A stretch of DNA of 64,000 bases. It comes from an uncultured Acidimicrobiia bacterium. Its GTDB lineage: Bacteria > Acidobacteriota > Terriglobia > Versatilivoradales > Versatilivoraceae. The number at the start of each line of letters is the position of its first letter. The stretch's first letter is position 1. Of this stretch, positions 14,491 through 32,830 are shown one piece after another. The notes beneath the pieces are model-generated. The model was given only the letters and a program-made list of their open reading frames with translations, did no database searches and had not been told where the DNA came from. The stretch lies in contig CAWBTP010000003.1 of the NCBI GenBank assembly GCA_963791795.1, positions 64,516 to 128,515 on the forward strand, written 5' to 3'. The position numbers and the translations under genes are program-made.

Positions 14491-15067
14491 CCTTGCCTGC
14501 CCAAAGTAACCGAAAAAGACTGGAGAATCACGATAGATATCCCCAGATGTGCGGAGTGTCGCTCGAGAGATAACGGCTCTTCTCCAGCGGAATCAGAGCA
14601 TCCTGATCGCATGGCAGCCAGAAAGGGACCTTTATCCTTGTTCGACTGTTGAATGGGAGCTCACCCATGGAGCTGCTGATGAGCAGTGCGGATGCCTGGC
14701 TGGCATCCGTACTGCTTCTTTGCGCCTCATCGCTCTGTGCTGCAGAATCAGCAAGGAGAGGAAATCCGCTGGATCACTCTCCAATCTGCGGGTCCCCTTT
14801 TCCGAACGGATTCCAAGCGGTCGTTCGATTTTTCACCTATGCAGTCTGGGTTTTCCCCTGCCGGCGTTTCCACTTCTATCACCCTACTGGCCGAATCACG
14901 GCGTAACCGGAGACTGGACGATCCGGTAAGATGACCTGTCGAGAACCTCGTCGATTGTGTCTCGCACATGAAGTCCCGCGTGAAGGACGTCGAAGCGACA
15001 CCAGTATGCCTCCTTCCTGGCGGGATTCACTAGGGTTCTGGTATGATCCATTCCCTACTCACTTTTC

Positions 15068-15721: not shown

Positions 15722-15736
15722 AATCCTTTTGCAATT

Positions 15737-16781
15737 TTGGCTTATCTTAGCAGGAGGGGTGTGTCTTCAGTGGATCCACAAACAGCTAGCGATCAACTTG
15801 TCACCCAGTATCTTCTCGGTTCTTTGTCTTCAGAAGAAACGGAACGGCTGGATGAACTGAGCTTGGCCGACGATGAATTCGCGGGACGATTGCAGGTGCT
15901 CGAGAACGAGCTGATCGACGCCTACGTCGAAGGCGAGCTTTCCGGTCAGACGCTGGAACATTTCAATTCATTCTATCTTGTCCTCGCCGAAACGACGCGA
16001 AAGGGTTAGATTCGCCCAAGCCCTCCACACAGTCTCAGAGCGCGCCGCAGTAGGACAACCGGCAGTGAACAAGCAACCAGTCGTCAAAGAGCCTCAGGTA
16101 TTGCCAAGGTCCGGCACGCCTTGGGCGTTCAGTTTGCGGGCACCGTCTGGCTCGGGACGAACTTTGCAATGGGGATTGGCCGCCGCGGCCTCGCTCCTGC
16201 TCGTGGCGGGCAGCTGGTTGATGATAGAGAATTGGCGGTTGCGCGGCCAGATGAAGCAGGCACATGCGGAACGAACGGGAGTAGAGCAGCACCAGAGGGA
16301 ATTGCTGGCACAGTTAGCGGAACAGCACTCATTTGCTTCGGCGAAGGAGAAAGAGCTTGCCGGCCTGCGCGAAAGCCTGGACCGCATCAAGCAGGAGTCA
16401 ACAGGCTTACCCTCGCAGCCACCATCAGAAGTGCCAACGATTGTCGCTTTCGCGCTGGCGGCTCAGACCCGCGGCATCTCCCAGATCGCTACCCTAGTCG
16501 TTCCTGCGGAAGCCGACTACGTAGCTGTCGAGCTTCAGCTGGAATCAGGAGGCTATCCCGGTTACCGCGCGATACTGAAAGCAGCGCCGGAGAACCAGGT
16601 CATTTGGCGGAGTGGGAGACTGAAGGCCAGAAGCAGCGGCGACCTCAAAGTCGTCGGGATTAGTCTCCGTCCCGCCCTGTTGAAATCATCTAGATATATG
16701 GTTGAAGTGTTTGGTGTTGCCGCCGACGGCAGCAGTAACGAGATCGCCGGTAGCTATGCGTTTACAGTCATCAAGCAGTAG
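15737..16781 (+). CDS. Putative anti-sigma factor (single TM helix, coiled coil), frameshifted
   Basis: ORFs 15737-16009 and 15978-16781 join as ...HFNSFYLV|SPKRRERVRFAQALHTV... after removing one C near 15990. TM helix LAAAASLLLVAGSWLMI. Confidence 0.5.
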
Positions 16782-16874
16782 TTGGCGTTCGGCTACTCTC
16801 CTCCTATGGGGGCTGAGCATGTGCTGGGACAGCGCGTCGGCGGGATCAAGAGTTTTGAAATGCTTGTTGTTCCT

Positions 16875-17261
16875 CGGAGGCGACAAATGTGAATAGCCAT
16901 GGGTCTGAGCGCAGCCGTGCGAAGCGAAGCCCGCGGTAGCAGGACAGTTTCCAGATTCAACCCTAAAAGGGTTGAACGGCCTCAATGTTAGTCACGGTTT
17001 CCGTTTGGGTTTTCGACTCCTTCCGGGTCAGGCCTTTCTAGCGACTCTAACCCTGGGTGGCGCCTGAGTGTCGCGCCGTCCAGGGCTATCCACACTTGGT
17101 CCCCTTCCGGACGCAGACTCAAACCCACCCGCCGGCTGAGTCCGGCGACCCGATTTATGGATAAACGCACCCATAGGGAGAGGTCTTCGCCGACTAGTGG
17201 CGGGGGTTTTGACGTTAGCTCCCCTGCCCTTGGCGTATCCTCCCGCAGGACAAGGAGGCCT
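16875..17261 (+). promoter_or_regulatory. Long structured non-coding leader upstream of the TPR-CHAT gene; head motif shared with 2463-2500
   Basis: GGAGG-N9-TGAATAGCCATGGGTCTGAG at 16875-16910. Several hairpins (ccctgggtggcgcc...gcgccgtccaggg). Strong RBS caaggagg 6 nt before ATG 17262. Confidence 0.3.
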
Positions 17262-20200
17262 ATGTTTTTGTCCTTACCCTGCCTGTTCCGATCGAACTGC
17301 TGGCACGCTCGTCTGTACACCACCGTGTTGCTTTGCGTTTCTTTTGTGCTTCCGTTCGTGCCAGGCCGAAGCGCGCAGGCGGTGATGCTGCTTGCTCCAG
17401 AGCAGCAGTCATCGCGGGCCGACAAAGGCGGACGTGATTCCGATGGAGTTGGGCTGCCAACCCTGGGCCAGTCCGTCGAGCGTGAACTGGCAGGCGGGCA
17501 AAAGCACAGCTACCAGATCACACTCGCTGAAGGTCAGTACCTCAGCGTGGTTGTCGAGCAACGCGGCATCAATGTGGCGGTGCGGATGGTCGGAACCAAG
17601 GGAGAAACCATCACAGAATGGGACCGTGAACTCACTCTCCAGGGGCGGGAGAATGCCGAACTTGTGGCCGACACCGCCGGGAGCTATCGCGTCACCATTG
17701 AAGCGAAGCCGAGGATGGCTGCCTCCGGTTTCTATAGGATTCGCGTCATGGAGTTGCGAGCTGCGACCGAGACAGACCAGACGTTAGCGGAAGCACGCAA
17801 GCTGCATTGGGAGGGTCGCCGCCTTTATCTCGCCGGAAAGTACGACCAGGCTCTTCCTCTTGTAGAAAAGGCGCTGCGAATCCGAGAGAAAGCGCTTGGG
17901 CCGAACCATCTCGAAACGGCGTTGACTCTCTTGGTGCTCGGCAACATCCACCAAGACAAGATTGAATTTGGAAGGGCGGAGGAAGCCTATCAGCGTATGG
18001 TCTCCGTCATAGAAACCGCGCTGGGCCATGAACATCCGCTTCTTGCTCTAGGCCTTAACAATCTTGCTAATACCTATGAGCGAAAGTATGAATTGGAAAA
18101 ATCCGAACGGCTGCACCAGCGCGCGTTAGCAATCCGGGAGAAGGCCCTGGGGTCCGAACACCTGGATGTTGCTCAATCTTTGAGTAATCTTTCCATTGTC
18201 TACAGCAAAAAAGGAGACTCGGCCCAGGTGGTGCTGCTTCTCGAACGATCGCTGGCGATCAGGGAGAAGCTGCTGGGCCCCCAAGACATTGCCATGGCTA
18301 TACCTCTGGCCAATCTCGCACTGGAATATCGCGCCAAGGGTGATTACCCGAAGGCGGAAGCCATGCTCCAACGCGCGCTGGTGCTGAGAGAGAAGGAGTG
18401 GGGGCCTAATCATCCGGACGTCGCGATAGCGCTCGGTCAGCTTGGTGAGCTCTATCGCGACAGAGGCGACTACGTCACAGCAGAGCCGCTGTATCGGCGC
18501 GGGCTGGCCATCCGCGAGGCCGAGCTGGGGCCCGATCATCTCGACGTTTCAAAATCCCTCAACAGTCTCGGCAACCTCTCCGAGGCCGCCGGGGACCTAA
18601 TCAAGGCGGAACAACTCTATCAGCGGGCCTTGGTGATCATAGAAAAGAACCTGGGACCGGACCACCCCTATGTCAGCAGGAGTCTCATGTATCTGGCCGG
18701 CCTCTACCAGAAGAGAGGCGACGATGCCAAAGCAGAACCGCTGTACCAACGGGCGCTGGCGATCCGGGAGAAACGATTGGAGCCCGACCATCCCGACCTT
18801 GCTGAGGTGTTCCATGGTCTCGCAGAGCTTCACAGATCAAAAGGAAACTACGACCAGGCCGAGCGGCTCTATCAGCAAGCGTTGCGAATCATAGAGAAGG
18901 GGTTGGGACCGGACCATCCCAAGCTTGTTGCCATCCTGAGCGGTCTCGCGAAGCTGCATGCCGCGAAAAGAGAGTTCGGTGAGTCTGTCGCTCACCAGGC
19001 GCGAGCCATGGAAGTGATTGAGTATAACGTTGATCTGAATCTCACAGCGGGATCGGAACGGCAAAAACTGGCTTACCTTGCCACGCTATCGGATGCGTCT
19101 GATCAGGCTGTCTCCCTGCACGCTGACTTTGACCCTGACAATCTCGCTGCACGCCAACTGGCTGCTACAGCGATCCTGCGACGCAAGGGCAGGGTACAGG
19201 ATGCGATGGCAGATAGCCTTGCGGGGTTGCGCCGACGCCTTGGGCCAGAGGACCAAGCGCTGCTCGACCGGCTCAATGACACAACGTCGCAACTGGCCCA
19301 ACTCGTTCTTAACGGGCCACAGCACATGGCTGCGACCGACCATCAGAAACGAGTCAAGGACCTCCAAGAACAAAGGGAGAACATCGAAGCCCAGATCAGC
19401 CAAGGTAGCAGCGGGTCTTACGGAGCGTCCCGTCCCATCACTCTCGACGTGGTGCAATCGCTGATCCCTCGCCAAGCCGTGCTGGTTGAATTCGCAGTAT
19501 ATCGCCCGCTGGATATAAAGGCTAAGGCGGACCAGCCGATCTTCGGCGAACCACGTTATGTGGTCTACATTGTGCGCCAGCAAGGCGAGGTTCAGTGGGT
19601 GGAACTCGGCAAGGCCAAAGTTATTGATGAAGCCGTCGCCGCTCTGCGCAGTGCGCTTTGCGATCCCAAACGGCGTGACGTGCACGAACTGGCCCGCGCG
19701 GTGGACGAGAAAGTGATGCAGCCGGTGCGCAAACGGGCCGGCGACGCTTCTCAACTGCTGTTCTCGCCGGATGGCGTGCTCAATCTTCTTCCCGTCGCGG
19801 CACTTGTGGATGAAAAGGGCAGTTACCTGATCGAACGTTACTCGATCAGTTATCTGACCAGCGGCCGCGACCTGCTGCGTCTTCAGATGGCCCGGCAAAG
19901 CCGCAACGCTCCACTCGTGCTCGCAGATCCCGTATTCGGGGAACCGGACGGCGTTCAGATCTCCAAGGCGGAGATCCCAGCCAAAGGGCGATTGACGCGG
20001 GACCGCTTGCTTCGAAGTGTGACCACGGGCTCGGACCTGTCTGAGGTCTATTTTGCCCGTCTGGAGGGAACCAGTCAGGAAGCCGGCGCCATCCGGTCGC
20101 TGTTTCCGGACTCCGTGGTCATGACGGGAACGCAGGCGACGGAGTCAACCCTCAAGCAGGCGGCTGCGCCCCGGCTGGTTCACATCGCGACACATGGATT

Positions 20201-20705
20201 CTTCCTGGAAGCAAACACCCCAAAGGCGCCGCAGGAAGCAGATCGCCGCGGGATCAACCTCAATGTGAGGATCGAGAATCCGCTGTTGCGCTCTGGACTG
20301 GCGCTGGCAGGCGCCAACCTGCGGTCGGATACTAGTGACGACGGCATCTTGACAGCTATGGAGGCTGCGGGGCTGAATCTGTGGGGAACAAAACTGGTGA
20401 CGCTCTCAGCCTGTGACACCGGGGTAGGTGAAGTGAAGAACGGCGAAGGTGTCTACGGCTTGCGCCGTGCGTTCGTACTGGCCGGGGCGGAGACGCTGGT
20501 CATGAGCCTGTGGCCCGTCAGCGACCGAGGTCACGCGAGAATTAATGAGTCGATACTACGAGGGCCTGAAGCAGGGACAAGGACGCGGCGAAGCCTTGCG
20601 GCAGATGCAACTCGACATGCTCAAGCGAAAAGATCGGCAGCACCCGTTCTATTGGGCCAGTTTCATTCAGTCCGGCGAGTGGGCCAACCTGGATGGCAAA
20701 CGCTG
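17262..20705 (+). CDS. TPR-repeat protein with C-terminal CHAT (caspase-like) protease domain, frameshifted near 20520
   Basis: Signal/TM-like N-terminus. At least 8 TPR_10/12-type repeats (...LNNLANTYERKYELEKSERLHQRALAIREKALG...). CHAT His/Cys dyad context HIATHGFF...LSACDTGVG. The true C-terminus ...SDEVTRELMSRYYEGLKQG...FYWASFIQSGEW is in the +1 frame (extra C in gaCCgagg). Confidence 0.75.
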
Positions 20706-20867
20706 AGGACGCCCAGGAGCGCAGCGATTGCAGCCAAGTGTCTGCCGTGTTATTTCCTTCAGACTCCCCTAACCGTAAGGCGAAACGAGGTTCTCCCCTT
20801 CATCATTCGCTACAGATGCAACCAATCCTCCCTTAGAACAGCCCCCCAACAGCAGGTGCACCCAAAG

Positions 20868-20917
20868 ATCAGCTCCGTCCTCTGAAATGTTTTTGCGGAC
20901 GTGTCTTATCCAAGTGG
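20868..20917 (+). promoter_or_regulatory. Conserved ~50-bp cis element, copy 1 (ATCNGCTCCGYCYTCTGAAATGTTTTT-N3-GAC-N-TGTCTTATCCAAGTGG)
   Basis: Same element at 22081-22130 (45/50 identical) and 25731-25778 (more diverged). Each lies immediately 5' of a gene start. Confidence 0.5.
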
Positions 20918-20977
20918 AACCGAGAGGGCACCAAAGGTGGCCGGTTTCTTCTGGTCACCAACAAAGGAGTCAAGCCT

Positions 20978-21838
20978 ATGAAACCCAAGAACGAAAATAC
21001 TATCAACAGAGATCTTAGGGATCTGGCAGGATTGGAACGGGCAGCGTTCCCAAACGTCGTAGCGCGCAGCTTCACGGTGACGCCGGAGGCTGTGGAAACG
21101 GGTGGGTCAGTCACCGTTGCCTGGAAGGTGACCGTGCCGGATTCCGACGATATTGTTGAGCTGAAGCTGAATGGGCAATTGATTGGTGCCTTTGGTCAGA
21201 AGCGTTTTACCAACTTGACTGAAACCACTGACTTCGCACTGTCTGCCGCGACCGAGCGTGAAGAAAGGGTGCTGCGCAAGTTGAGAGTTCGCGTGGACAC
21301 ACCAGAGTGCCGGTGGGCGACCCCAGTCGAAGCCTTCGTGATCACCGCATTACTGAAGAAAGAGTTCGACGATCGCTTTAGCGGAAGCAGCCAGTTCAGT
21401 CTGCGTGGTAACGGAACTGTTGTGACTCTTGATGCCGGTGCGATCAACATCGCGGTGCCTGTGACGATCCACGTGGAGGACTGGTTCAATGCGGACATGG
21501 ACGTCGCGATCAAATTGTCGGTCACGGGAGGGGGAGGATCACCAGTCCTAGTACTGTCCCGCGGTGTTAGTCTCAATGTGAGCTGGTCTTTCTTCGAGCA
21601 TCTGCCCAGCCTGGGGTGCACGCATTTTGTCGAGAGCGGAATGTCGCAGTTGGGACAGGCGCTCATGTCGGATATTGTCAAGTCGGAACTGGTGCCTAAG
21701 GTCGCACGAGCGTTCAATGACCAGGTCGATAAGTTCATCAAAGAGGTCCAAGAAGGGGATCCGCAGCACCGGACGTACGTGTTGGCGTTCTTTGCGCTTT
21801 CGCCCGACGGCCTTAGGTTCAAGGTTTGCCCGGGGTAG
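20978..21838 (+). CDS. Hypothetical protein (286 aa, beta-rich, no signal peptide) immediately downstream of the CHAT gene
   Basis: Good RBS aaaggag. Ig-like stretch TVTPEAVETGGSVTVAWKVTVPD, then alternating-hydrophobic beta-strand text. No recognisable family. Confidence 0.5.
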   Translation: MKPKNENTINRDLRDLAGLERAAFPNVVARSFTVTPEAVETGGSVTVAWKVTVPDSDDIVELKLNGQLIGAFGQKRFTNLTETTDFALSAATEREERVLRKLRVRVDTPECRWATPVEAFVITALLKKEFDDRFSGSSQFSLRGNGTVVTLDAGAINIAVPVTIHVEDWFNADMDVAIKLSVTGGGGSPVLVLSRGVSLNVSWSFFEHLPSLGCTHFVESGMSQLGQALMSDIVKSELVPKVARAFNDQVDKFIKEVQEGDPQHRTYVLAFFALSPDGLRFKVCPG

Positions 21839-22080
21839 AAGCCGATGCTTCCTTACAACAAACCCTCCGATAGCAGGTATTCACCGTCAACCAACCGCAA
21901 CGCTCGCACGACCCTGATTATCCAGTGACAGGTCGGCTTGCGAAAGCGTAGTCCGCAGCGGTGGTGCTTGAGGACCGTCGCTTATCAGGGAAGCTTTCTC
22001 AAGGAAGCCGACTGGCAAAAAGCGCCAGCCGCTGAATCCTGGGGTGGTAGGCCGCTTACATCCAACCATTCGCCAAAAAA

Positions 22081-22130
22081 ATCTGCTCCGCCTTCTGAAA
22101 TGTTTTTCCTGACATGTCTTATCCAAGTGG
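22081..22130 (+). promoter_or_regulatory. Conserved ~50-bp cis element, copy 2
   Basis: atctgctccgccttctgaaatgtttttcctgacatgtcttatccaagtgg. Ends 14 nt before ATG 22144 of the S8 peptidase. Confidence 0.5.
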
Positions 22131-22143
22131 GTATGAGAACTTT

Positions 22144-23210
22144 ATGACACCGTTGGACCTGGTAAGACTTACAGCATTGACAGACCACACTACCGGTAGG
22201 CCCGATGTGATCATCGGGCTCATCGATGGACCTGTGGCGATGAACCATCCTGAGCTTGCTAGCGAGCATGTTCGCGAGATCGCTGGAAATGTCGAGGGGC
22301 GCCTGCACCCAGGCCAACAGCATGGCTTGCTTGCACGGCACTTTTGTGGCTGGGATTCTGTCCGCGAAGCGGGGATCGGTCGCTCCAGCGATTTGTCCCA
22401 ACTGCACCCTGCTGGTGCGACCCATCTTTGCCGAAACGACAACGGCGAACGGCGAGATGCCGAGCGCCATGCCCGAAGAACTGGCCCAGGCCATTCTCGA
22501 CTGTACTGATGAGGGCGCGCGCGTGCTGAACGTCAGCGCCGCTATAGCCCAACCTACCATAAAGAGCGAGCAGGCGTTAGAAGCGGCTCTGCATCACGCC
22601 GCCAAGCGCGGGGTCATCGTGATTGCGGCAGCGGGCAATCAGGGGACTCTTGGCAGTACAGCCATCACTGTCACCCGTGGGTGATACCGGTGGTGGGTTA
22701 TGACCTGCAGGGCAGGCCCATGAATCACTCGAACCTGGGAAGCTCAATTGGCCGGCGAGGATTGGGCGCACCCGGTGACCGAGTCACTAGCATTGGCGCC
22801 AATGGCAAGCCGCTGACCCTGGGAGGAACTAGTGCCGCCGCGCCTTTTGTGACCGGTGCCATTGCGTTGCTGTGGTCGGAATTCCCAACCGCTACAGCGA
22901 CTGAGATGAAATTTGCCGCTACCCACGCACAGACCGCAGGGCGAACACAGTCGTCCCGCCCCTGCTGGATGCCTGGGTGGCGTATCATCCTAATGATGAG
23001 GACGTAAAGACCATGCCTGAGGAAAAGACCAAAACCGAACGCCAGCCCTACCGAGTGCGCCTTCCAGGGTTCGTTAGCGACAAGGATATTGGCCTGGGCG
23101 ATGCCATCAAGCATGTGACTTACGCCCTCGGAATCCGACCCTGCGGTGGCTGCGAACGCCGGGCTGCCGCGCTCAACCGCTGGTTTGTCTTTACCGGGCG
23201 AACCAAGTGA
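22144..23210 (+). CDS. Small S8 (subtilisin-like) serine peptidase with C-terminal CxxC tail; three frameshifts
   Basis: Asp, His and Ser motifs all present but in different frames: VIIGLIDGPV (frame 1), HGTFVAGI (frame 2), GTSAAAPFVTGAIALL (frame 1). S8-type C-terminus ...PLLDAWVAY continues in frame 0 into ...IRPCGGCERRAAALNRWFVF*. Breaks near 22300, 22675 and 22945. Confidence 0.65.
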
Positions 23211-23248
23211 TCCAAGTCCGAAAAGATCCATCTTGAAGGAGGAGAACC

Positions 23249-24121
23249 ATGGACCAAGAAACGAAAGAACAATCAGCAAGCCGGGAAGAGACAAAGCGCG
23301 GTACTGCTCTGGTCACACCCTCTCAACGGGATGTCGTCGCAGCTTCGCCGGCCACAGAGACGCCCTGCCCCACTTGCGCTAGCGGTGCGGGTTCCATGCC
23401 GGTCTCTCACGTCTATGCGATTGGCCGGATCGAGGCGCGCTTCCCGCGCCTCTCGGTCGAGAAGGAATTCGCTCAGGCGGCAGGACGCGCCGAGACCGCG
23501 GGTCAGACCGATCAGCAGATGTTCTACAACGTGCTCTCCAAACCCGAGAGCCGGTATCTCGCCCGCCAGCTGTGCTGGGTGTTGATGATCCAAGGTCTCG
23601 AAACCTACATCGTGCAGCCTCGCGATCCCAGGGATTTCGATCGGTTGGTGGAGGCCATCCGCCCCCAACCAAGCCCCATGGATATCGATGTCGTCATTGG
23701 TATGCGGGGGCCTATCGCTCCGCCTGAGCTCTGCAATGGGCTCATGGTTCCGATCGTTGTATTTGACCAGATTTACTCTTTCGACCGCGATGCGCTCATC
23801 AAAGCCATCCCGCGGCCAGAGAAGATGACGGCAAAGCAGTATGAAGCGGCGGCGGGGGAAGTGTTCGATAGGATCCTGCAGATGACGGACAACGCAGGGG
23901 CGACGGATGACCACCGGACGCTGAACTACTTGGCCATGCGCTATCCTGGGATCTACGCCAAGACGGCGGAAGAATTTGCACGGGATTTTTCGCTAACTGG
24001 GGTCGATGTGCTTCCTTCGCCCTTGAGCGGCACGCGCAAGATCGTGGATGTGCATCTTTTCCTACACCAACCGCAACACCGATTTCACCGAGAAGTTTTC
24101 TGTGCGCTGCGATATGACTGA
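23249..24121 (+). CDS. Hypothetical 290-aa protein with N-terminal CPTC motif; possibly related to the PatA/PatG C-terminal DUF (low confidence)
   Basis: Strong RBS aaggaggag. ...TETPCPTCASGAG...HVYAIGRIEARFPRLSVEKEFAQ... loosely resembles the VYALGxLxYDFG...F.Q block recalled from the cyanobactin PatA/G DUF. Uninterrupted. Confidence 0.45.
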   Translation: MDQETKEQSASREETKRGTALVTPSQRDVVAASPATETPCPTCASGAGSMPVSHVYAIGRIEARFPRLSVEKEFAQAAGRAETAGQTDQQMFYNVLSKPESRYLARQLCWVLMIQGLETYIVQPRDPRDFDRLVEAIRPQPSPMDIDVVIGMRGPIAPPELCNGLMVPIVVFDQIYSFDRDALIKAIPRPEKMTAKQYEAAAGEVFDRILQMTDNAGATDDHRTLNYLAMRYPGIYAKTAEEFARDFSLTGVDVLPSPLSGTRKIVDVHLFLHQPQHRFHREVFCALRYD

Positions 24122-24272
24122 GGAGTTTCCGTTCTTGGTCACAAAGATGTCGCCGTACTATGACCGATGAACTTAACTAACCGAAAGGAGACATGAAATG
24201 AACGCTATTAATAGCGGCTAAAGCCGATCTTCGGGGCCCCAGCTTCGACCGAGACGATTAAACCTAACTAAG

Positions 24273-24300
24273 ATAGGAGATATAGGAGATTATAGGAGAT
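24273..24300 (+). repeat. Three tandem ATAGGAGAT(T) repeats (SD-like GGAG x3) immediately upstream of a small-peptide start
   Basis: ataggagat-ataggagat-tataggagat-atcaa-ATG. Seen directly. Confidence 0.6.
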
Positions 24301-24305
24301 ATCAA

Positions 24306-24530
24306 ATGAACACTATAAATATGCCTGGTTTTACCGCGGAAACCTCACTTTACAAGCACAGGACATCCTATCGCATGATGACAGGTCGCAATGGCAATGA
24401 CTCGTCCGGCGTCATTCCACAGATGGCCCCAAGCTGGATGTGTGAGTATGCGGGCGAGCAGTGTGACAATGATGATTTAATATACTGCAAGGCTTGGCGC
24501 TCTTGGAACTGTTTCCGCGGCAGCCTATAG
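24306..24530 (+). CDS. Small Cys-rich peptide (74 aa), candidate protease-processed precursor/bacteriocin-like peptide
   Basis: MNTINMPGF...MAPSWMCEYAGEQCDNDDLIYCKAWRSWNCFRGSL. Four Cys in the last 30 aa. A truncated look-alike start (ATGAACGCTATTAATAGCGGCTAA, 24198) lies upstream in the same frame. Confidence 0.4.
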   Translation: MNTINMPGFTAETSLYKHRTSYRMMTGRNGNDSSGVIPQMAPSWMCEYAGEQCDNDDLIYCKAWRSWNCFRGSL

Positions 24531-24725
24531 GACGTTGAGCAACTGCCGACCGAGAGTTGGGGGCGGGTGCACCTGCGACACCACGGTCACCGCGAGAACC
24601 GGCGACTGCGGTGATTGACTATCCGGCGCATGTCGGAATCGCATAAAAACGAGTGTTGTCGAACACGATAAAAAGGGGTCAGGCCTTGCATTCACGTATC
24701 CGGCCTAACGCTCCACCCGAGCGCG

Positions 24726-25652
24726 TTGTATCTCATGGCTACCTATGACGCATCGATCAAAAAGGCTTTGGATCCCCAGCAGGATGATCTCATCAAGCAC
24801 AAGGAGCATTGCTCGGCCGACCCCGAAAAGCTCGGGACGACCGGGCGGGCGCTCTGGCATCAGGTTCGGATCAAGCGCAACGACGACGAGTACGGGCTCT
24901 ACACGGTTAGCGAGGTGCGCCAGGAGAACCCGGACAACATCGTACGCATTGGCAAAGGCGGAAGAGAGCGACTCGGTACGAGCGACGAGTTTGACGGTAC
25001 GCTCGACTCGCAGGTGCCACATGCGACCCTCTCCGACGCGGAGGCCGAATGCAACGGCGAATTCGTCGAGCGGCTCGACGATGATGGCGCGCACACGGGG
25101 CTCATTGCCATCGCACCCCACGGCGGAGACATCGAGGCGTACACTGACCAACAAGCCGAGCGCGTCACGTCGCAGCTGGCGGGCAAGGGTGTCAGCTCGT
25201 GGCGATGCAAGGGCTGGCACCCCAAAGGAGCCTTTGACCACTGGCACATCACCTCGACCGATATCCACGAGGCGAGCTTTCCTCTTCTCAACTCGGTAAT
25301 CTCTCGGGGCTTCAGCAATGCCGTCGCCTTTCATGGGTTCGACGACGACAACATTCCGTTCGACATTCTCGTCGGCGGCCTCGCGTGCGAGGCCCTGAAG
25401 GAGAAGGTCAAGGGAGCCATCGAAGGCGTCGTCGGCTCGGATTTCACAGTGCACATAACGAAGCCGGATGAGCGGTTCGGCGGCGACGACAAGCGGAACA
25501 TCGTCAACCGGCTCACCGCTGGCGGAAGGCATGGCATCCAAATCGAGCAGAAAAAGGGGCCTCGAGAGAAATACGCGTTGCCCATCGCCGATGCAGTCGC
25601 CAACGTCTACGACTCCGAGCTCGGGCTACCCACTCAACAAAAACTGAATTAG
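24726..25652 (+). CDS. Poly-gamma-glutamate hydrolase (PghP/UPF0714)-like zinc peptidase with ~100-aa N-terminal extension
   Basis: ...LIAIAPHGGDIEAYTDQ... and ...AFHGFDD... match the H-x-x-x-x-E ... H zinc-site pattern recalled for the PghP family. Uninterrupted. Confidence 0.5.
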   Translation: MYLMATYDASIKKALDPQQDDLIKHKEHCSADPEKLGTTGRALWHQVRIKRNDDEYGLYTVSEVRQENPDNIVRIGKGGRERLGTSDEFDGTLDSQVPHATLSDAEAECNGEFVERLDDDGAHTGLIAIAPHGGDIEAYTDQQAERVTSQLAGKGVSSWRCKGWHPKGAFDHWHITSTDIHEASFPLLNSVISRGFSNAVAFHGFDDDNIPFDILVGGLACEALKEKVKGAIEGVVGSDFTVHITKPDERFGGDDKRNIVNRLTAGGRHGIQIEQKKGPREKYALPIADAVANVYDSELGLPTQQKLN

Positions 25653-25730
25653 TCAAACCCACGGATCCCGCTTCAAAGCAGCGGCTTTCGCTCGCCCTCT
25701 CGCCCCCGCATGTGACCATTCAACAAAACC

Positions 25731-25778
25731 GGCCATTCAGCCCTATGAAATGTTTTCGCGGGAATGTCTTATCGAAGT
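25731..25778 (+). promoter_or_regulatory. Conserved ~50-bp cis element, copy 3 (diverged)
   Basis: ggccattcagccctatgaaatgttttcgcgggaatgtcttatcgaagtga. About 210 nt upstream of ATG 25989. Confidence 0.45.
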
Positions 25779-25988
25779 GAAAGCGAGAAGCCTCATCAGA
25801 CGCGTTCCGCTTTCTGTGAAGCCCCGGCTCAACACACACTATCAGCTGAAAAGAAAAAGACGGTCCCTGAGAAAAGCCATTCGATCACCGAGATCTTGAT
25901 GGGGCCTTTTACCGCCGGAAGCCGCTCAAGCAAGAGCCCAGCGGAAACACTCGCCGTCCAGAAGGGCAAGGCGACTAGGGAGGACAAC

Positions 25989-27575
25989 ATGATTAGGATT
26001 CGGACAGCATGCACTCTGACTCTCGGAGTGCTGTTTGCAGCTTGCAGTTCACTGATAGTTCTCGGTCAGCTGATCGACAGGACCAAGGCGCCTAACACGG
26101 CTGGTGCGGGCATCGGCAAGTCCCTGGCTGAACAAATTGGCGTTGGGCGGGGCGATGCGATGACGCCTGACTCTTCCTGTTTCACTATCAATCGTGATCC
26201 CTTTCGAGCCATTCGGCGAGGGCGTCAGCTCTTCCAGCGCAAGTTCACTCGAGCCGACGGACACGGGCCGAACGTCGGTGACGGCAACGGCGACATGAAT
26301 GCGACGCTAGCAATCGGTGCCGGATTGGCCGACAGTTGCGCAGGTTGTCATGGACGTCCGAGCGGCTCGGCTGGCTTCGGCGGTGACGTGGCTACCCGGC
26401 CAGATAGCCGGGACGCACCTCACCTTTTCGGACTTGGACTTAAGGAAATGCTGGCAGACGAGATCACACAAGACCTGCGGGCTATCAGGGCCCAGGCTCT
26501 GCTGCAATCCAAGAGCACAGGCCAACCTGTCAGCCAGCGTCTGTTTAGCAAAGGAATACGTTATGGATGGATCACCGTGCAACCCGACGGTTCAGTGGAC
26601 ACTTCCAGGGTCCAAGGAGTAAATCCTGATCTCCGCGTCCGCCCTTTCTTTGCGCATGGCGAAACCATGTCCATTCGAGAATTCGTGGTCGGAGCCCTGC
26701 AGAATGAAATGGGTCTTCAAGCTGCGGATGCCGAGCTTGCTCAGGCGCGTGCTGGAGGCAAAGTTACCACTCTGGCCGGCATGGTGCTGGATGGATCCCT
26801 CGATGAAATTGAGGCTCCGCCCACAGCTGATCCGCTGGCTGATCCCGATGAGGACGGCGTCAAAAATGAAGCACCGGAGAGTTTGGTGGACTTTTTGGAG
26901 TTTTACCTACTCAACTACTTCAAGCCGGGAACCTACGCACAAACGGCGACTACCGAGAGGGGCCGTTATCTATTCCAGGGTGTCGGCTGTGCCAGTTGTC
27001 ATCGACCCAACCTGTTACTCAACCGGGACCGACGCGTGGCCGACGTGGAGACTGCCTACGATCCTGACCGCGGCATCTTTAACAATCTGTTTGCCACCGC
27101 CATGCCGCTGAACATTTCAGTCAATGACACCTCGGGTTTTCCTGCCCTAAGGCGACCGAAACTGGACCCTTTCCTCGTCACGAATATCTTCACGGACTTC
27201 AAGCGGCACGACGTTGGTCCGTATTTTTATGAACGGAATTACGATGGATCGCTTCGAAAACAGTTTCTGACGACGCCCTTGTGGGGAGTAGGAAGCACCG
27301 CTCCTTATGGCCATGACGGACGCAGCTTGAATCTGACTGAAGTGATATTGCGTCACGGCGGGGAAGCGCAAACCTCACGCGATCGATTTGCTAGTTTGCA
27401 GGAGGACGACCGGTTGGCTTTGCTCGCTTTCTTGAGTTCATTGGTGGTGTTTCCTCCCGACGACACCGCATCCAACTTGGACCCCGGAGATCGCAACACG
27501 CCCAACTTCCCACAGTCTGGCCACGGTAGTATCAAGTTGGGAGTTTTGTTCAACGATCCTCATGATCCAGAATAG
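25989..27575 (+). CDS. Di-heme c-type oxidoreductase/peroxidase-like protein (DUF1111 family)
   Basis: Signal peptide MIRIRTACTLTLGVLFAACSS; two CxxCH motifs (CAGCHGR, CASCHRP); ~530 aa. RBS gggagga. The track ORF start 25764 is an upstream over-extension. Confidence 0.65.
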   Translation: MIRIRTACTLTLGVLFAACSSLIVLGQLIDRTKAPNTAGAGIGKSLAEQIGVGRGDAMTPDSSCFTINRDPFRAIRRGRQLFQRKFTRADGHGPNVGDGNGDMNATLAIGAGLADSCAGCHGRPSGSAGFGGDVATRPDSRDAPHLFGLGLKEMLADEITQDLRAIRAQALLQSKSTGQPVSQRLFSKGIRYGWITVQPDGSVDTSRVQGVNPDLRVRPFFAHGETMSIREFVVGALQNEMGLQAADAELAQARAGGKVTTLAGMVLDGSLDEIEAPPTADPLADPDEDGVKNEAPESLVDFLEFYLLNYFKPGTYAQTATTERGRYLFQGVGCASCHRPNLLLNRDRRVADVETAYDPDRGIFNNLFATAMPLNISVNDTSGFPALRRPKLDPFLVTNIFTDFKRHDVGPYFYERNYDGSLRKQFLTTPLWGVGSTAPYGHDGRSLNLTEVILRHGGEAQTSRDRFASLQEDDRLALLAFLSSLVVFPPDDTASNLDPGDRNTPNFPQSGHGSIKLGVLFNDPHDPE

Positions 27576-27588
27576 AAAGAACAGAAAC

Positions 27589-28160
27589 TTACTTCGGAAG
27601 CCCCAAATGCGAGGCAATCGCCTCCTTGAGCTGGCCGAGATCTTCAGGATGCACGTAGCGAAACCAGTCTTCCGGGCTGAATCCGATTTCCCCCTCTTCG
27701 CACCCCAACATGAATTTCCAGCGCGGGGAAAAGTAGATGGCATGGGTTCTCAGGTTCCAATCCCAGAGGCCATCGTTGGCGCCCTTCGGCTGCCAGCGCA
27801 TATCGCTCTTCGCTTTCACGCAGTGCCGCCTCATTGTGTTGTGGGCCAGGTGGGCTTTGACGCGCGTCAGCACCACCGGAAAATCAACCGGCTTGGTCGA
27901 GTAGTCGTTAGCTCCCAGACTCAGCGCTTCGACGATGTCGGCGCTTTGATTGTTGGCGCTGACCACGATGACCGGAAGCTCGGTGGGCGTCTTGCTTTGA
28001 CGCAGCGCCTTCAGCACCTCGAGCCCACTCATCTCCGGCATCTCAATGTCGAGCAGAATCAAATCGAAATTCTATTTCGCTGACCAGCTCCAACGCTTCC
28101 CTGCCGTCTCCGACCGTGGGATCACCCTTCTCCATTTTTGAAATGGTCTGGGACCAACTC
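27589..28160 (-). pseudogene. Response-regulator receiver + partial PAS fragment (N-terminally truncated, frameshifted)
   Basis: Minus-strand frames join as ...DPTVGDGREALELVSEIE|FDLILLDIEMPEMSGLEVLKAL... (extra T in gaaTTTcg at ~28075). No coding sequence upstream for the first ~50 aa of a REC domain. PAS-like WDWNLRTHAIYFSPRW is incomplete. Confidence 0.5.
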
Positions 28161-28694
28161 GCTAAGCCAAGACTGAATAATCATTTACACGAAGTGAATT
28201 AAAATGAGCTTTGTTCAGAAATCGAAAGGAAAGATGCGTTGAATCAACGCCGCCTGACACTGATCACCTGGACATTTCCGAATTGAACCGTTTTCGGTCG
28301 AAGTGCCTGAGACAGCACAAACTACAGGTCGGACGCCATGCCAGAGACAATTCAAAAAATCAGGAACAATGCAGCTTGCCAATGAGCAGGCGAATGCTGA
28401 GATCCCGGGCCCAGTTCGACTTGCTGCCCACGCAGTTCAGCCTTCGGTCAAATTCGAGAACTCCCTCTCCCGTTTGTGGGGAGAGGGGTGAACGCTTGAT
28501 AAGCGTTCACAAGGCCGGGTGAGGGGTGAAGAACGGAGCCCTAATGCCTCGGCGGTAAGAGGTCGCTCGCTACTGTTTGGCTCGCATGGGCCTATTGCGG
28601 GTGAGGACACCCTTCCTGAGGATCTCAGCCTGCTGAGGAGTGAAGTCCAGCAATCCCTGGGAGGCCTTCCGCCACTCACTTCTCTTCGAGTCTG

Positions 28695-29142
28695 CTACGC
28701 ATGATACCCGCGTCCGAATGTCCCGGAGCAATCAGCAGGTGTCCAATTTCGTGGGTGATTGCCACTCCTAAGACATCCTGTTGTGGAACTCTCCGATCTC
28801 TTGGCTACCGTTTCGATCACGTCACCAAACAGGTAGACAATTCCGTTGCCCGGAGTCGTATCAAGTTCGTCTGCGAATCCGAGCTTTCGACAACCGATTT
28901 CGTCCGTTGCCTTTTGGAGCTGTCGAATTATTCGGATGGAAATCTGGCCGGGTCCGGTGAAGCCTGAGCAAGGAGGAACGGATCGACTTGCATCCAGTGA
29001 ACAGTCCACAGTCAACAACTCGACTCCGGTCGATCCGTAGGATCATGGCAGCGAACTCTAACCCTTGCTTTAAAGCCTTACGATCCACATCTGCTCTGTT
29101 GATAAAGCCGACGGTGATCTGGGGCATGCTCGGCTTGGGCAC
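28695..29142 (-). pseudogene. Remnant of an HExxH zinc metallopeptidase gene spread over three frames
   Basis: Minus-strand translations: MPQITVGFINRADVDRKALKQGLEFAAMIL... / ...GNGIVYLFGDVIETVAKRS... / ...GVAITHEIGHLLIAPGHSDAGIMRSRLEEK*. No single ORF longer than 107 aa. Confidence 0.35.
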
Positions 29143-29349
29143 TGATGTCTGGGACGATGATTAAGCAAAAGGCTAATTGCCAGGGTCTTCCCGCTTTGGA
29201 TTCTCATGGTCTCTCCCTCCTGGCTGCCATAGGCGGGAAGGGAGAGCGAAAACCTGAAAGGGCAGAAAGTTTTTTTTGGGCCCTTATTCCAGTCTGAGAA
29301 GGAGCGGTGGTAGAGTGTCGGAAACCGACGAACAAGTAGGCGGGGGCTT

Positions 29350-29931
29350 ATGGCTTCACTCCCACGCGATGAAGTGACGCAACTGCTGCTGGCCTGGAGG
29401 CAGGGAGAGCCATTGGCTTTGGAGGAACTGATCCCAGTCGTCCACAAGGAGTTGCGAAGGCTCGCCCACCGCTACATGAGTGGAGAACGGGAAGGACACA
29501 CTCTGCAGACCACAGCTCTGGTGAATGAGGCTTATCTGCGCCTCGTGGACTCCAGCCAGGTGCAGTGGCAGAACCGCGCCCATTTTTTTGCGACGGCTGC
29601 CCAACTGATGCGTCGAGTTCTGGTGGACTTTGCCCGGACGCGCAACTACCAGAAACGAGGCGGCGAGGTCCTAAAGGTTGAATTCGACGAAGCCTGGATG
29701 GGGTCCACTGGGCGGGGGAGTGATCTGGTGGTGGCTCTCGATGATGCGCTGCAGGAACTGGCGAAGTTCGACGCCAGGAAGAGCCAGGTGGTGGAGATGC
29801 GGTTCTTTGGGGGCTTGAGCGCCGAAGAAACGGCTGAGGTGCTGAACGTGTCGGAGGATACCGTCTTAAGGGACTGGAAACTGGCGAAGACTTGGCTCTT
29901 GCGGGAACTCAAGAAGGACAACGAGCGATGA
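29350..29931 (+). CDS. ECF sigma factor of the Ser/Thr-kinase-associated type (TIGR02999-like)
   Basis: MASLPRDEVTQLLLAWRQGEPLALEELIPVVHKELRRLAHRYM... is the characteristic N-terminus of this ECF group. Region 4 ...LSAEETAEVLNVSEDTVLRDWKLAKTWL.... Stop overlaps the kinase start. Confidence 0.75.
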   Translation: MASLPRDEVTQLLLAWRQGEPLALEELIPVVHKELRRLAHRYMSGEREGHTLQTTALVNEAYLRLVDSSQVQWQNRAHFFATAAQLMRRVLVDFARTRNYQKRGGEVLKVEFDEAWMGSTGRGSDLVVALDDALQELAKFDARKSQVVEMRFFGGLSAEETAEVLNVSEDTVLRDWKLAKTWLLRELKKDNER

Positions 29932-32830
29932 AGCCTGAGCGTTGGCAGAAGATTGACGAGATCTTTCATGCCGCCTTGCAGTACAAGCCGGATGAGCGGA
30001 AGGCTTTCATCGAAGAAGCCTGCCGGGGTGACGAGGAACTGCGACGGGAACTCGAGTCCCTGTTGGCCGAGGAGAGAGGAGCGGACCAGTTCATTGAAGC
30101 AACCCGCGATGGAAGTCGTGGCAAAGGACCTGGCCGATGAGCAGAAGGAGGTGCTCGGATAGGGGAAACAATCGGCCCTTACAAGATCCTTTCCCTGCTG
30201 GGTGCGGGAGGGATGGGCGAGGTCTATCGGGCCGAAGATAGCCATTTGAAACGACACGTCGCGGTCAAAGTTCTGGCGAGCCGTTTCGCCGATGATCGGG
30301 AGCGCATGGGGCGATTCGAGCGGGAAGCACACCTGCTGGCTTCGCTAAACCATCCCAACATCGCCGCAATCTATGGACTACAGGAGTCAAACGGTGTTCG
30401 GGCACTGGTGATGGAGCTGGTGGAGGGCCGAACGCTCGCTGATCGCATTGCAGCGGGACCGATACCGCTCGACGAAGCGCTTCCAATCGCCCTGCAGATG
30501 GCTGAGGCGCTGGAGTATTCGCATGAAAAGGGCGTCATCCATCGGGATCTAAAGCCGGCGAATGTCAAGCTGACGCCGGAGGGCATTGTGAAGGTGTTGG
30601 ACTTCGGACTGGCCAAAGCTCTGGAGGACGGTTCGACAAAAAGTGACCTGGAGAAATCGCCAACAGCTGACAGTAGCAGACCGAGACCGGTTTGGTTCTG
30701 GGGACGGCGGCCTACATGTCACCCGAACAGGCTCGTGGCTTGCCAGTAGACAAGCGTGCCGACATCTGGTCGTTCGGGGTGGTCTTCTACGAGATGTTGA
30801 CGGGAAAAAGACTCTACGCCGGGGCTACCACTAGCGACACACTGGCAGCGCTGTTGAAGGTTGAACCCGACTGGAATGCGTTGCCACCAGAGGTTCCACC
30901 GAGGATCCGGAGACTGCTGCGCCGCTGCCTGACGAAGGACCGGCGAGAAAGGCTTCAAGCCATTGGAGAGGCCCGAATCGAGATCGCGGGTTATCTGGCC
31001 GATCCGGTGGAAGCAGCCGGTCAATCAGCAACCCGCATCGGGTTGAAGCAGAAACTATTGTTGGCCGGATCGGGTCTAGCCCTGATCATTGCCTCGGCGT
31101 GAGTCACCTGGCAGTTGAAGCGAGAGCCTGCTCCGCCAGCACCTCTTCGTTTGGAAGCAACGCTACGGGAGAACCTCTGGCATTGATAGCTAGGCACCTA
31201 GCTTTTGCGTTTTCCCCTGACGGCAGACGGCTGGCGTATTTTGCCGGGAGGTATGCCAGTCGACGCTTGTACTTGCGCTCCCTGGATCGTTTCGAGGGAG
31301 AGGAACTGGCCAGTGTAGAGTGGGGCAGCACTCCCTTCTTTTCTCCGGACGGAAACTGGGTGGGTTTCGGCACTCCCACAGCTTGAAGAAGATACCAGTG
31401 AACTGGCGGCACAGCTGTGACGTTGTGTCCCTGCGATCGACGCTCGCGGAGCCAGTTGGGGGCCGGACGACACGATTGTGTTCGCAGCCACTCTTCCCAA
31501 GGTTCCTCCATTGGCATGATGAAGGTGTCAGCGGCGGGAGGAGTGCCCGAGCCAGTCACCACTTTGAAGGGTAAGGAGATTAGCCACAGCTGGCCGCAGC
31601 ATCTCCCAGGAGGAAGCCTGGTTCTGTTTACTTCCTACGAGTCCGCCGACTATGACCGTGGCAGCATCGAAGTGGTCGATTTGAAGACGGGCAGTCGGAA
31701 GGTCGTGCATTCAGGGGGCACTTATGGCCGCTATGCAGCCTCGGGACATCTGCTCTATGTTCAGCGAAACACCCTCTGCGCCGCCCCGTTTGATCTGGGA
31801 CGGCTGGAGATCACGGCCAAGCCGGTGCCGGTGCTGAAGGATGTGATGACGAATGGTAGCAGGGGGTGCCCATTACGATGTTTCACCCGACGGGAACGCT
31901 GGTTTACCTGAGCGGGCAAGATGCTTCAGCTTCCGGAGGCGATTGTTCTGGGCAGAGCCGGGTGGCAAGCGGACCTCAATCAGCGAAAGGCTGCGGAATT
32001 ACTACTGGCCGGCCATAGCCCCCGACGGCAAGCGATTGGCAGTGACAATCTTTGAGCAGGACAATTGGGATCTGTGGATTCACGACCTGGAGCGCGACAG
32101 CCAGACGCGACTGACCTTTCATGAGGGCGCGGACTTTTTCTCGGTCTGGTCGCCAGACGGGCGTTGGATTGCCTTCTGCTCGCAGCGGGATGGGCGCTCT
32201 CAAATCTACCGGCAAATGGCAGACGGCTCAGGACAGGCGGAGCGCTTGCTGGAGAGCCAATATGACCAAGGCCCCGCATCCTTCTCTCCGGATGGGAAGT
32301 ATCTGCTCTTCTGGAGAGCATCATCCCGACAGCCTGTGGGACATCTGGGTGCTTGCGCTGGAGGGAGAGAGAAAGATCGAGGTATTGGCGAACAGCAGGT
32401 TCAATGAGCGTTCACCTGTCTTTTCCCCGATGGGCGCTGGGTCGCCTACCAGTCAGATGAATCGGGAAGATATGAGATCTATGTTCAGGCCTTTCCGGGG
32501 TCGCGGCGGCAGACGGCAGATCTCCACGAAGGGCGGCGAGTCGCCTCGCTGGTCTCGGGACGGCCGCCGGCTGTTCTACAGGATCGACGAAGGTCTTGAT
32601 GTCCGTGGTCGTTCGGACGGAGGGAAATGAACTCCAGGTTGGAGTTCCTCAGGCGGTCGTTGAAACGGACGATTCGTTCTCGGGCATTTGGGATTGGGAT
32701 GTCGAGCCAGACGGAAAGCGCTTTGTGTTGATACGCGACGAGGAGAGCGGCGGTCCGGCCTGGTCCAACCCTGCTGAAGTTCACTGTCCACTGGTTCGAG
32801 GAACTCAAGCGCCTCGTTCCCAGGAAATAA
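29928..32830 (+). pseudogene. Ser/Thr protein kinase with C-terminal TolB-like (PD40) beta-propeller, disrupted by at least 8 frameshifts
   Basis: Pieces in all three frames: MKPERWQKIDEIFHAALQYKPDERKAFIEEACRGDEELRRELESLLA / PAMEVVAKDLADEQKEVLG / IGETIGPYKILSLLGAGGMGEVYRAEDSHL...HRDLKPANV...DFGLAK / ...AAYMSPEQARG...DIWSFGVVFYEMLTGK / PD40 repeats (SFSPDGKYLLF, WSPDGRWIAF) / terminal ...VHWFEELKRLVPRK*. Checked breaks fall in 2-3-nt homopolymers. Confidence 0.7.

Follow-up and report, generated by a model that had tools for sequence, protein, structure and literature searches.

We describe here a short DNA element that recurs in a stretch of 64,000 nucleotides (nt) from an uncultured bacterium (assembly GCA_963791795.1, contig CAWBTP010000003.1, positions 64,516 to 128,515 of the forward strand). 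This whole stretch is referred to as the window, and positions are counted from its first letter. With a probability that we put at roughly three in four, the element is the cognate promoter of a divergent sigma factor of the extracytoplasmic function (ECF) type encoded at 15086-15721, 5 kb upstream. The motif is conserved in sequence, position and orientation, and it is tightly linked in the genome to a module of three genes, which encode the sigma factor, a single-pass membrane protein resembling anti-sigma factors and a caspase-like TPR-CHAT protease. Judged from this arrangement, the sigma factor of the module would be the one that reads the motif.

Pattern matching and a repeat search bore out the three plus-strand copies (copies 1 to 3, Table 1) that a preliminary description of the window had reported. 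They share the core TGAAATGTTTT-N8-TGTCTTATC-N-AAGTG, followed by GAGA a few bases later. The pattern TGAAATGTTTTNNNNGANNTGTCTTATC, with up to three mismatches allowed, matched exactly these three sites in the 64-kb window and nothing in any of 100 dinucleotide-preserving shuffles, and the repeat search grouped them into one 54-nt family with 87% and 70% identity to copy 1. The close similarity of copies 1 and 2 held up, albeit at 44 of 50 identical positions instead of the 45 originally claimed for the same 50 nt; copies 1 and 3 agree at 36 of 50. When a weight matrix was built from related sites and the window was then scanned with it, a fourth, degenerate copy emerged (copy 0), so that the original count of three proved too low. 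The match for copy 0 spans 15715-15757, and its score (Table 1) stands against 11.3 bits for the best site in 20 shuffled windows. Apart from the four copies, the scan returned no site in the window with 12 bits or more.

The first TGA of copy 0 is the stop codon of the sigma gene, and the copy ends 24 nt before the GTG start codon of the anti-sigma gene. Copy 1 begins 177 nt past the stop codon of the CHAT gene and ends 68 nt before the ATG (20978) of the gene for a 286-residue (286-aa) protein. It is intergenic because the TPR-CHAT gene really ends at 20706. An open reading frame (ORF) of 1242 aa that seems to overlap copy 1 is a frameshift artefact, and the true C-terminus of the CHAT protein resides in the ORF 20545-20706. 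Copy 2 ends 21 nt before the ATG (22144) of an S8 peptidase gene (MTPLDL...), a layout that is repeated in a related assembly (loci L086 and L089). Copy 3 ends 216 nt before the ATG (25989) of a di-haem oxidoreductase (DHOR) gene, and the ATG inside the motif is not the start codon of that gene.

Table 1 Motif copies and genes of the module and its cargo in the window.
Feature	Position	Strand	Score or match
Motif copy 0 (degenerate), core TGAAATCCTTTTGCAATTTTGGCTTATC	15719-15746	+	weight-matrix score 21.1 bits
Motif copy 1	core 20883-20910, conserved block 20868-20921	+	45.3 bits
Motif copy 2	core 22096-22123	+	47.4 bits
Motif copy 3	core 25746-25773	+	50.4 bits
Divergent ECF-like sigma gene, 211 aa, GTG start as in the identical database protein P0001	15086-15721	+	
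Anti-sigma-like single-pass membrane protein gene, 1-nt indel near 15975	15770-16781	+	
TPR-CHAT (caspase-like) gene, frameshift near 20545-20600	17157-20706	+	
286-aa protein gene, first cargo gene, Shine-Dalgarno AAAGGAG	20978-21838	+	
S8 (subtilase) peptidase gene, three ORF pieces via frameshifts	22144-23007	+	
PatG_D/PatG_C-domain gene (cyanobactin-protease-associated domains)	23249-24170	+	PF18047 E=2.6e-33, PF18065 E=6e-23
74-aa Cys-rich small protein gene (MNTINMPGFTAETSLY...)	24306-24530	+	
Di-haem oxidoreductase gene (DHOR/DUF1111), signal-peptide-like N-terminus	25989-27575	+	PF06537 E=1.5e-14

Upstream of copies 1 and 2 (20864-20882 and 22077-22095) there is an additional block, AAA(A/G)ATC(A/T)GCTCCG(T/C)C, which also occurs in L086 and L089 and is absent at copy 3 and in other lineages. 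The block could serve as an UP-like or activator site specific to this lineage, or it could be the trace of a recent duplication. The leader past copy 1 (20921-20960) contains a short conserved hairpin-like stretch of the GGCACC-AAAG-GTGCC type (window, L089 and L099), which a related assembly retains as ACCGAGAG-GCACCGAAGGTGC-CCGGTT.

The motif extends far beyond the window. A search of 596 Gb of species-representative genomes on both strands with the exact pattern TGAAATGTTTT-N8-TGTCTTAT, which specifies 19 bases, yielded 117 stretches with 131 instances, where about four are expected at uniform composition. Some 104 of the 117 loci are of the Acidobacteriota type. They come from about 75 species-level assemblies, nearly all of them labelled Acidobacteriota, and the groups represented are Pyrinomonadaceae, Blastocatellia, Chloracidobacterium, Terriglobia and Angelobacter. 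The other 13, scattered over unrelated phyla, look like chance matches. The small regulon first envisaged is more than a local feature and belongs to a phylum-wide system. Positions outside the search pattern are conserved in the approximately 104 loci as well, namely an A-rich run upstream, TCCCGAA(A/T) in the spacer and C-AA-n-GTGAA-G downstream, and many of the loci carry two to four exact copies about 1-1.5 kb apart. A variant found in Terriglobia reads GTCTTATG and has a diverged spacer.

In its general anatomy, the motif starts with the -35-like block TGAAAT, continues with the T-tract (G/A)TTTT and reaches the -10-like block GTCTTAT 14 nt past TGAAAT. A conserved TG follows about 6 nt past GTCTTAT. 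Conservation ends approximately 37 nt from the start of the motif, and the whole element measures about 40-45 nt. The distance between TGAAAT and GTCTTAT is invariant, both in the 131 exact instances and in 67 distinct sites taken from loci that had been selected by sigma homology (see below). The logo of these 67 sites, which is less biased than the motif-selected one, shows TGAAAT with frequencies of 0.79-1.0 at each position, (A/G)TTTT, a variable stretch, GTCTTAT and the TG six bases on; the third and fourth bases of GTCTTAT, C and T, are invariant.

A few taxon labels are discordant. The assembly nearest to the window (CAVVYL01, with loci L017, L086, L089 and L099) is labelled 'uncultured Acidimicrobiia', and the named homologues of the sigma factor are all from Acidobacteriota. 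Motifs of the acidobacterial type also occur in L087 (labelled Clostridia), L027 (Chthoniobacterales) and L033 (Cytophagales), the first two of which carry module genes too. These labels probably reflect labelling or binning errors.

The genomic linkage between the motif and the module genes is tight. When the 8-kb loci selected by the motif were compared with the window proteins by tblastn, 54 of 104 held at least one module gene, with homologues of the TPR-CHAT protein in 50, of the anti-sigma protein in 31 and of the sigma factor in 22 loci. The same comparison found no sigma, anti-sigma or TPR-CHAT homologue in any of the 13 chance-type loci. The order is constant throughout the motif-selected loci: sigma, motif, anti-sigma, TPR-CHAT, motif, cargo. 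Fourteen of the 22 loci with a sigma gene bear the motif in the gap between the sigma and anti-sigma genes. The C-terminus of the CHAT protein is present in 46 loci, and in every one of them an exact motif follows downstream on the same strand, in 29 cases within 200-363 nt.

Since these loci had been chosen by the motif, we gathered a second set of 88 loci (574 kb) by sigma homology alone, eight through exact-protein look-ups and 80 through a metagenome scan, and recorded weight-matrix matches of at least 14 bits. The sigma strand carried 81 matches and the opposite strand two, and just five matches fell into the 262 kb upstream of the sigma genes. The motif was present in 48 of 79 sigma/anti-sigma gaps and in 14 of 20 testable regions reaching up to 500 nt past the CHAT gene. 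It stands before the anti-sigma gene and not before the sigma gene. The preliminary description had proposed a comparison with two nearby sigma factors: for the one it placed at 15068-15721 this revealed the association with the sigma/anti-sigma module, whereas the one at 29350-29931 has no homologue in any motif-selected locus and drops out as a reader of the motif. This second sigma factor belongs to the TIGR02999 family (214 bits) and adjoins fragments of a Ser/Thr kinase gene; ORFs resembling beta-propeller repeats by inspection of their translations were noticed in this part of the window (29350-31102 and onwards).

Some loci deviate from the common layout. In L121, a sigma homologue was found with neither an anti-sigma gene nor a CHAT gene nor the motif nearby. 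Three Angelobacter loci (L019, L054 and L061) contain the module without the TPR-CHAT gene and have the motif directly after the anti-sigma gene. These three, together with L049 and L090 from Acidobacteriaceae, show no motif of 18 bits or more in the sigma/anti-sigma gap.

The sites have the placement that is expected of promoters. Downstream of 93 instances and on the same strand, an ORF that measures 60 aa or more and has a Shine-Dalgarno sequence begins no more than 350 nt away, often after 40-100 nt, and the distance from motif to start codon ranges overall from 16 to more than 300 nt. For the longest open frame across the motif centre, the median length is 100 codons, as opposed to 367 at random positions in the same loci. 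In some of the upstream flanks, a hairpin plus a T-run directly precedes the motif (by inspection), so that each gene looks like a separate transcription unit.

A dispersed repeat, i.e. the remnant or end of a mobile element or a cassette boundary without regulatory function, had been named as an outcome that would overturn a regulatory role. It could be argued that L085, L081 and L119 carry three to six copies at intervals of about 1-1.5 kb, with a different small gene after each, that the cargo varies strongly (51 clusters among 93 proteins) and that one island (L118) contains a transposase. However, the sites are mostly non-coding, always point towards a gene and occupy orthologous positions across families, in the sigma/anti-sigma gap and just past the CHAT gene. 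The copies are direct repeats with neither inverted arms nor target-site duplications seen on inspection, and some 40 bp are conserved while the flanks diverge. A search of 2.9 million viral contigs gave two motif matches, which is chance level and does not support a phage origin. Furthermore, three homologues of the 286-aa protein (52-72% identity) in other contexts have neither the motif nor the module nearby, which indicates that the motif belongs to the island and not to this cargo gene. Of all explanations considered here, a dispersed repeat is the least credible.

With regard to promoter type, no sigma-70 promoter (TTGACA-N16-18-TATAAT, at least 9 of 12 matches) was found at any of the four motif positions, and inspection showed no sigma-54 promoter (GG-N10-GC). 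Conservation, orientation, non-coding placement and linkage to the sigma/anti-sigma pair support the earlier proposal of a cis-regulatory, non-sigma-70 promoter of the ECF type that would define a regulon. Of the canonical ECF cores AAC (-35) and CGT (-10), the motif conserves AA and GT(C). The short spacer that had been remarked upon is real, with AA-N14-TGT here versus GTAA-N16-CGT in the promoters read by DdvS of Myxococcus. Since ECF promoter spacers of 14-17 bp are quoted (PMC6061681), the geometry of the motif is at the edge of the known range. Counting from the first T of TGAAAT, transcription probably starts 32-33 nt on, at or near the conserved TG, and for copies 1, 2 and 3 this would place the starts near 20916, 22129 and 25779.

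We also considered a function in the RNA, with the element serving as a 5' leader, as a structure of the riboswitch kind or as an upstream ORF that is translated (MSYPSG...). Copy 1 does bear the 26-codon ORF with a GTG start and a terminal ATGA that had been pointed out before, copies 2 and 3 have an in-frame ATG at the equivalent position, and GTGAA past the -10 block is conserved. Yet the start-like triplet is part of the conserved (A/G)TGTCTTATC, and the base before TGTC is A in just 44 of 129 instances and G or C in close relatives, so that ATG is found in a minority. The triplet would lie inside the predicted -10 region, upstream of the putative transcription start, and in one relative the stretch from the motif to the S8 start codon differs by a 1-nt indel. 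Rfam gave no match at E values up to 1 over 14000-30000, RNAalifold predicted no base pairs for 23 motif instances, and conservation ends at about 37 nt while the distance to the start codon varies widely. We reject the upstream ORF as a functional feature, and an RNA-level function in general is highly improbable. A direct-repeat binding site, GAAATGT-N7-GAAATGT, was likewise tried and dismissed; it is a feature of the Pyrinomonadaceae consensus and occurs neither in the window nor in the sigma-selected sites.

The protein encoded at 15086-15721 is, by its predicted fold, a sigma factor of the ECF type. Its sequence gave matches with the models TIGR02989 (E=3.6e-13, 49.7 bits, cut-off 124.6) and TIGR02937 (E=4.9e-9, 36 bits, cut-off 42.9) and, weakly and in the correct order, with the Pfam regions Sigma70_r2 (E=0.01, 16.1 bits, cut-off 24) and r4_2 (E=0.004, 17.2-17.7 bits, cut-off 25.7). 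An AlphaFold2 model (pLDDT, the predicted local confidence score, 78) has two helical domains joined by a disordered linker. In a Foldseek comparison, the top 13 PDB matches of this model were all ECF sigma factors (SigL, SigH, sigmaE and AlgU), with probabilities of 0.99-1.0 and E values of 2e-3 to 3e-2; the TM-scores are low because the domains are oriented differently. When solved structures were searched by sequence, neither the single query nor a 32-sequence profile found a match. The family comprises at least 3432 homologue clusters, with no Pfam assignment among the 120 listed, and the three homologues that carry an NCBI name among the clusters listed are called 'hypothetical protein'.

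The next gene encodes the adjacent candidate for the cognate anti-sigma factor. Its two ORF pieces are 96% identical to an intact orthologue of 336 aa (P0151), the N-terminus of which matches the anti-sigma domain zf-HC2 of Pfam with 22.5 bits (cut-off 22.2). The protein has one hydrophobic segment that would span the membrane, and in the structural model an N-terminal helical domain is followed by the membrane segment, which runs into a long helix, and a C-terminal beta-sandwich. By inspection, the N-terminus lacks the CHCC zinc ligands, with no Cys in the first 90 residues. The best PDB matches for the beta-sandwich (residues 224-335 of P0151, 16440-16781 in the window) are cysteine-protease inhibitors of the chagasin type (EhICP2, E=5e-5), and many generic Ig-like folds match too. 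A chagasin-like sandwich in a protein whose partner is a cysteine protease would be suggestive, albeit weakly so.

The third gene of the module encodes the TPR-CHAT protein, with clear matches to Pfam CHAT (E=6.5e-67) and TPR_12 (E=6.7e-100) and with a His-Cys dyad (HIATHG at residue 1009, LSAC at 1083-1086). Six tandem units of 126 nt with 60-71% identity (18099-18929) are TPR_12 repeats inside this gene. The protein is predicted to be exported, as it has a hydrophobic segment near its N-terminus (residues 51-69), and a signal-like N-terminal segment of this kind was seen in four of five CHAT homologues checked. The anti-sigma protein (about 336 aa) and the TPR-CHAT protein (about 1000-1180 aa) are encoded by separate genes in the window, as they are in all related loci that were examined.

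Many genes in the window are split by single-base indels, i.e. those for the anti-sigma protein (around 15975), the TPR-CHAT protein (around 20545-20600), the S8 peptidase (22144-23007), the PatG-domain protein (around 24050) and a Ser/Thr kinase (30213-31102). As the assembly carries such indels, gene calls near the motif copies need correction. The indels may stem from long-read sequencing error or from real pseudogenisation, and intact orthologues such as P0151 exist elsewhere.

Several points speak against the cognate promoter of the module's sigma factor as the identity of the element. The spacing is 2-3 bp below that of canonical ECF promoters, and the -35 block contains AAT in place of AAC. 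The sigma factor reaches no curated cut-off of Pfam or TIGRFAM. No motif was found upstream of the sigma gene itself in the motif- and sigma-selected loci, which means that the positive autoregulation classic for ECF operons is lacking. Around 25 positions are conserved, which is more than sigma recognition alone usually demands, so that binding of a second factor is conceivable as well. The independent test relied on a weight matrix that had been trained on motif-selected sites. Finally, the frameshifted genes might mean that the module is decaying in this organism, although sequencing errors would explain them equally well.

Some of the same observations would fit a different reader, either another alternative sigma factor or a transcription factor acting with the housekeeping sigma factor, with the module being one prominent member of the regulon. 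Such a regulator would account for the motif-free sigma gene and for a conservation that, with the T-tract in the spacer and the start region, goes beyond most ECF promoters. In the Pyrinomonadaceae consensus, GAAATGT recurs after 14 bp, a layout that might fit a dimeric binder, and about half of the motif-selected loci have no module gene within 8 kb. On the other hand, the second GAAATGT is missing from the window copies and the sigma-selected sites, hexamers of the sigma-70 type do not occur at the sites, the linkage with the module is very tight and directional, and the second sigma factor of the window is never co-located with the motif. Apart from four AbrB-like proteins among 93 cargo proteins, no DNA-binding regulator recurs downstream or nearby. 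We thus regard a different reader as unlikely and favour the sigma factor of the module.

If the motif is read by this sigma factor, regulation could proceed as follows, with the proteolytic route of activation proposed by analogy to characterised systems. The single-pass anti-sigma protein encoded beside the sigma factor would hold it in check. The exported TPR-CHAT protease would sense an envelope or extracellular cue and cut the anti-sigma protein on the periplasmic side, and subsequent intramembrane proteolysis would free the sigma factor. RNA polymerase with the released sigma factor would then fire the four sites in the window. Site 0 would re-supply the anti-sigma and CHAT genes and thereby provide negative feedback, site 1 would drive the gene for the 286-aa protein, site 2 the S8/PatG-like genes and probably also the small-peptide gene, and site 3 the di-haem oxidoreductase gene.

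The closest known system is that of DdvS in Myxococcus, where the anti-sigma factor is fused to a periplasmic TPR-CHAT part (DdvA) and several local promoters share one bipartite motif (PMC6061681, PMC11506125). Both systems combine a sigma factor of the ECF type with a single-pass anti-sigma protein and an extracytoplasmic TPR-CHAT caspase-like module, in both of them several neighbouring transcription units each have the same bipartite promoter, and for both a CHAT-dependent site-1 cleavage followed by intramembrane proteolysis is proposed. They differ in that the TPR-CHAT protein described here would be a separate exported protein and not a part of the anti-sigma factor, that the anti-sigma protein has no CHCC zinc ligands and a borderline zf-HC2 match only, and that the promoter reads TGAAAT-N14-GTCTTAT and not GTAA-N16-CGT. 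Moreover, the sigma gene is not preceded by the motif, the cargo comprises neither a cyclic-oligonucleotide-based anti-phage signalling system (CBASS) nor type III-B CRISPR (PADLOC gave a generic TPR match only), and the sigma factor from the window is too divergent for the profile of its family to find a solved PDB sigma factor by sequence.

A second parallel is offered by the type III-E CRISPR 'Craspase' with Cas7-11, Csx29 (TPR-CHAT), Csx30 and CASP-sigma (PMC10028731). There, too, a TPR-CHAT protein is thought to cleave a sigma-binding inhibitor and thus to free an ECF-like sigma factor, which binds a motif that occurs several times in the locus of that system. The sigma factor from the window matches the NCBIfam model for the type III-E sigma factor (NF041236) with E=1.8e-5, far below the cut-off. 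The Craspase is cytoplasmic and RNA-guided, whereas the module described here is not accompanied by cas genes, its CHAT protein has a signal-peptide-like N-terminus and the putative inhibitor is a membrane protein. With the classical envelope-stress ECF systems, sigmaE/RseA/DegS/RseP of Escherichia coli and sigmaW/RsiW of Bacillus subtilis, the module would share paired sigma and anti-sigma genes, an anti-sigma factor under the control of regulated proteolysis, a bipartite promoter that has AA around -35 and GT(C) around -10, and the location of one promoter inside the sigma operon. Unlike in these systems, site-1 cleavage would fall to a caspase-like CHAT enzyme whose gene belongs to the operon, the spacer is shorter by 2-3 bp, the promoter for the feedback precedes the anti-sigma gene and not the sigma gene, and the regulon is variable and consists mostly of uncharacterised secreted proteins.

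Turning to the cargo, the 93 proteins encoded downstream of the motif fall into 51 clusters, 36 of them singletons, and about half have signal- or membrane-like N-termini. Recurrent types are DHOR, DUF5122 propeller proteins, a family of about 208 aa of unknown function, GYF_2 proteins and S8 peptidases. VgrG- and Hcp-like proteins occur as single examples according to their N-termini, and for one of them Pfam supports a Phage_GPD hub. DHOR is the most recurrent cargo: six genes downstream of the motif in other assemblies encode it, and homologues are present in 10 motif-selected loci. The DHOR homologues downstream of the motif in L012, L046, L066, L093 and L112 have 61-70% identity. In the window, the start codon of the DHOR gene is preceded by the Shine-Dalgarno sequence GGGAGGA. 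The 286-aa protein has no match in Pfam, NCBIfam or PADLOC, and its 29 homologue clusters are all hypothetical proteins. In L007 and L008 (JBKKAT01), the motif was seen before genes for peptides of 51-60 aa with an KLKLNKKTVKDLN...GG leader, as is typical of precursors with a Gly-Gly leader.

Matches to Peptidase_S8 lie in the ORFs 22256-22684 and 22681-23007 of the window, and the N-terminus MTPLDL of the S8 protein is conserved in L086 and L089. The gene for the PatG-domain protein, whose C-terminal piece runs on in the ORF 24048-24170, is probably co-transcribed with the S8 gene. L017 encodes a weak homologue of the small 74-aa protein, which is a candidate precursor peptide of the S8/PatG-like enzymes and whose gene may be on the same transcript. 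It is preceded by a repeated Shine-Dalgarno-like run AGGAGAT (AGGAGATATAGGAGATTATAGGAGATATC). A truncated paralogue of the 74-aa ORF (MNAINSG*) was noticed at 24178-24201. Beyond the generic TPR match, PADLOC did not find known anti-phage systems.

Taken further, the data allow a wider proposal, which we put forward tentatively and with less confidence than the promoter assignment. The module may constitute a phylum-wide three-gene extracytoplasmic switch, in which the exported TPR-CHAT protein cleaves the anti-sigma protein and frees a sigma factor from a family that lies below the cut-offs of the Pfam and TIGRFAM sigma profiles. This sigma factor in turn would fire a near-invariant promoter of unusual length before each gene of a fast-changing island, with secreted or cargo genes for peptidases, di-haem oxidoreductases, peptide precursors, large propeller proteins and VgrG/Hcp-like proteins. 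It would then be an envelope-level, CRISPR-independent counterpart of Craspase/CASP-sigma and DdvA, serving defence or competition.

ECF promoters and CHAT-linked control of sigma factors are already known in kind. The sigma family, the split three-gene architecture, the motif and its spread across Acidobacteriota appear undescribed in the literature searched: the papers listed in a search for the motif sequence were unrelated primer-type matches only, nothing was found on the regulation of this acidobacterial system, and the paper on the reclassification of ECF sigma factors mentions neither CHAT nor TPR. The motif now has a candidate sigma factor, whose family counts at least 3432 sequence clusters. 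As the sigma factor from the window fails the Pfam models for the sigma regions, censuses of ECF factors based on Pfam would probably miss this family. The module would be the third independent case, after DdvA and type III-E, of a CHAT caspase-like protease wired to an anti-sigma/sigma pair, and since the protease is a separate exported protein here, the hypothesis that CHAT proteins act as site-1 proteases becomes testable with two separable proteins.

Acidobacteriota are among the most abundant bacteria in soil, and to our knowledge almost no regulatory circuitry has been described for them. With its length of about 40 nt, the motif can serve as a query against acidobacterial genomes and metagenomes of any kind. 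It marks out many uncharacterised secreted proteins as putatively co-regulated, including the PatG-like peptide cluster and the widely conserved DHOR, and thus offers a testable regulon in a poorly studied soil phylum.

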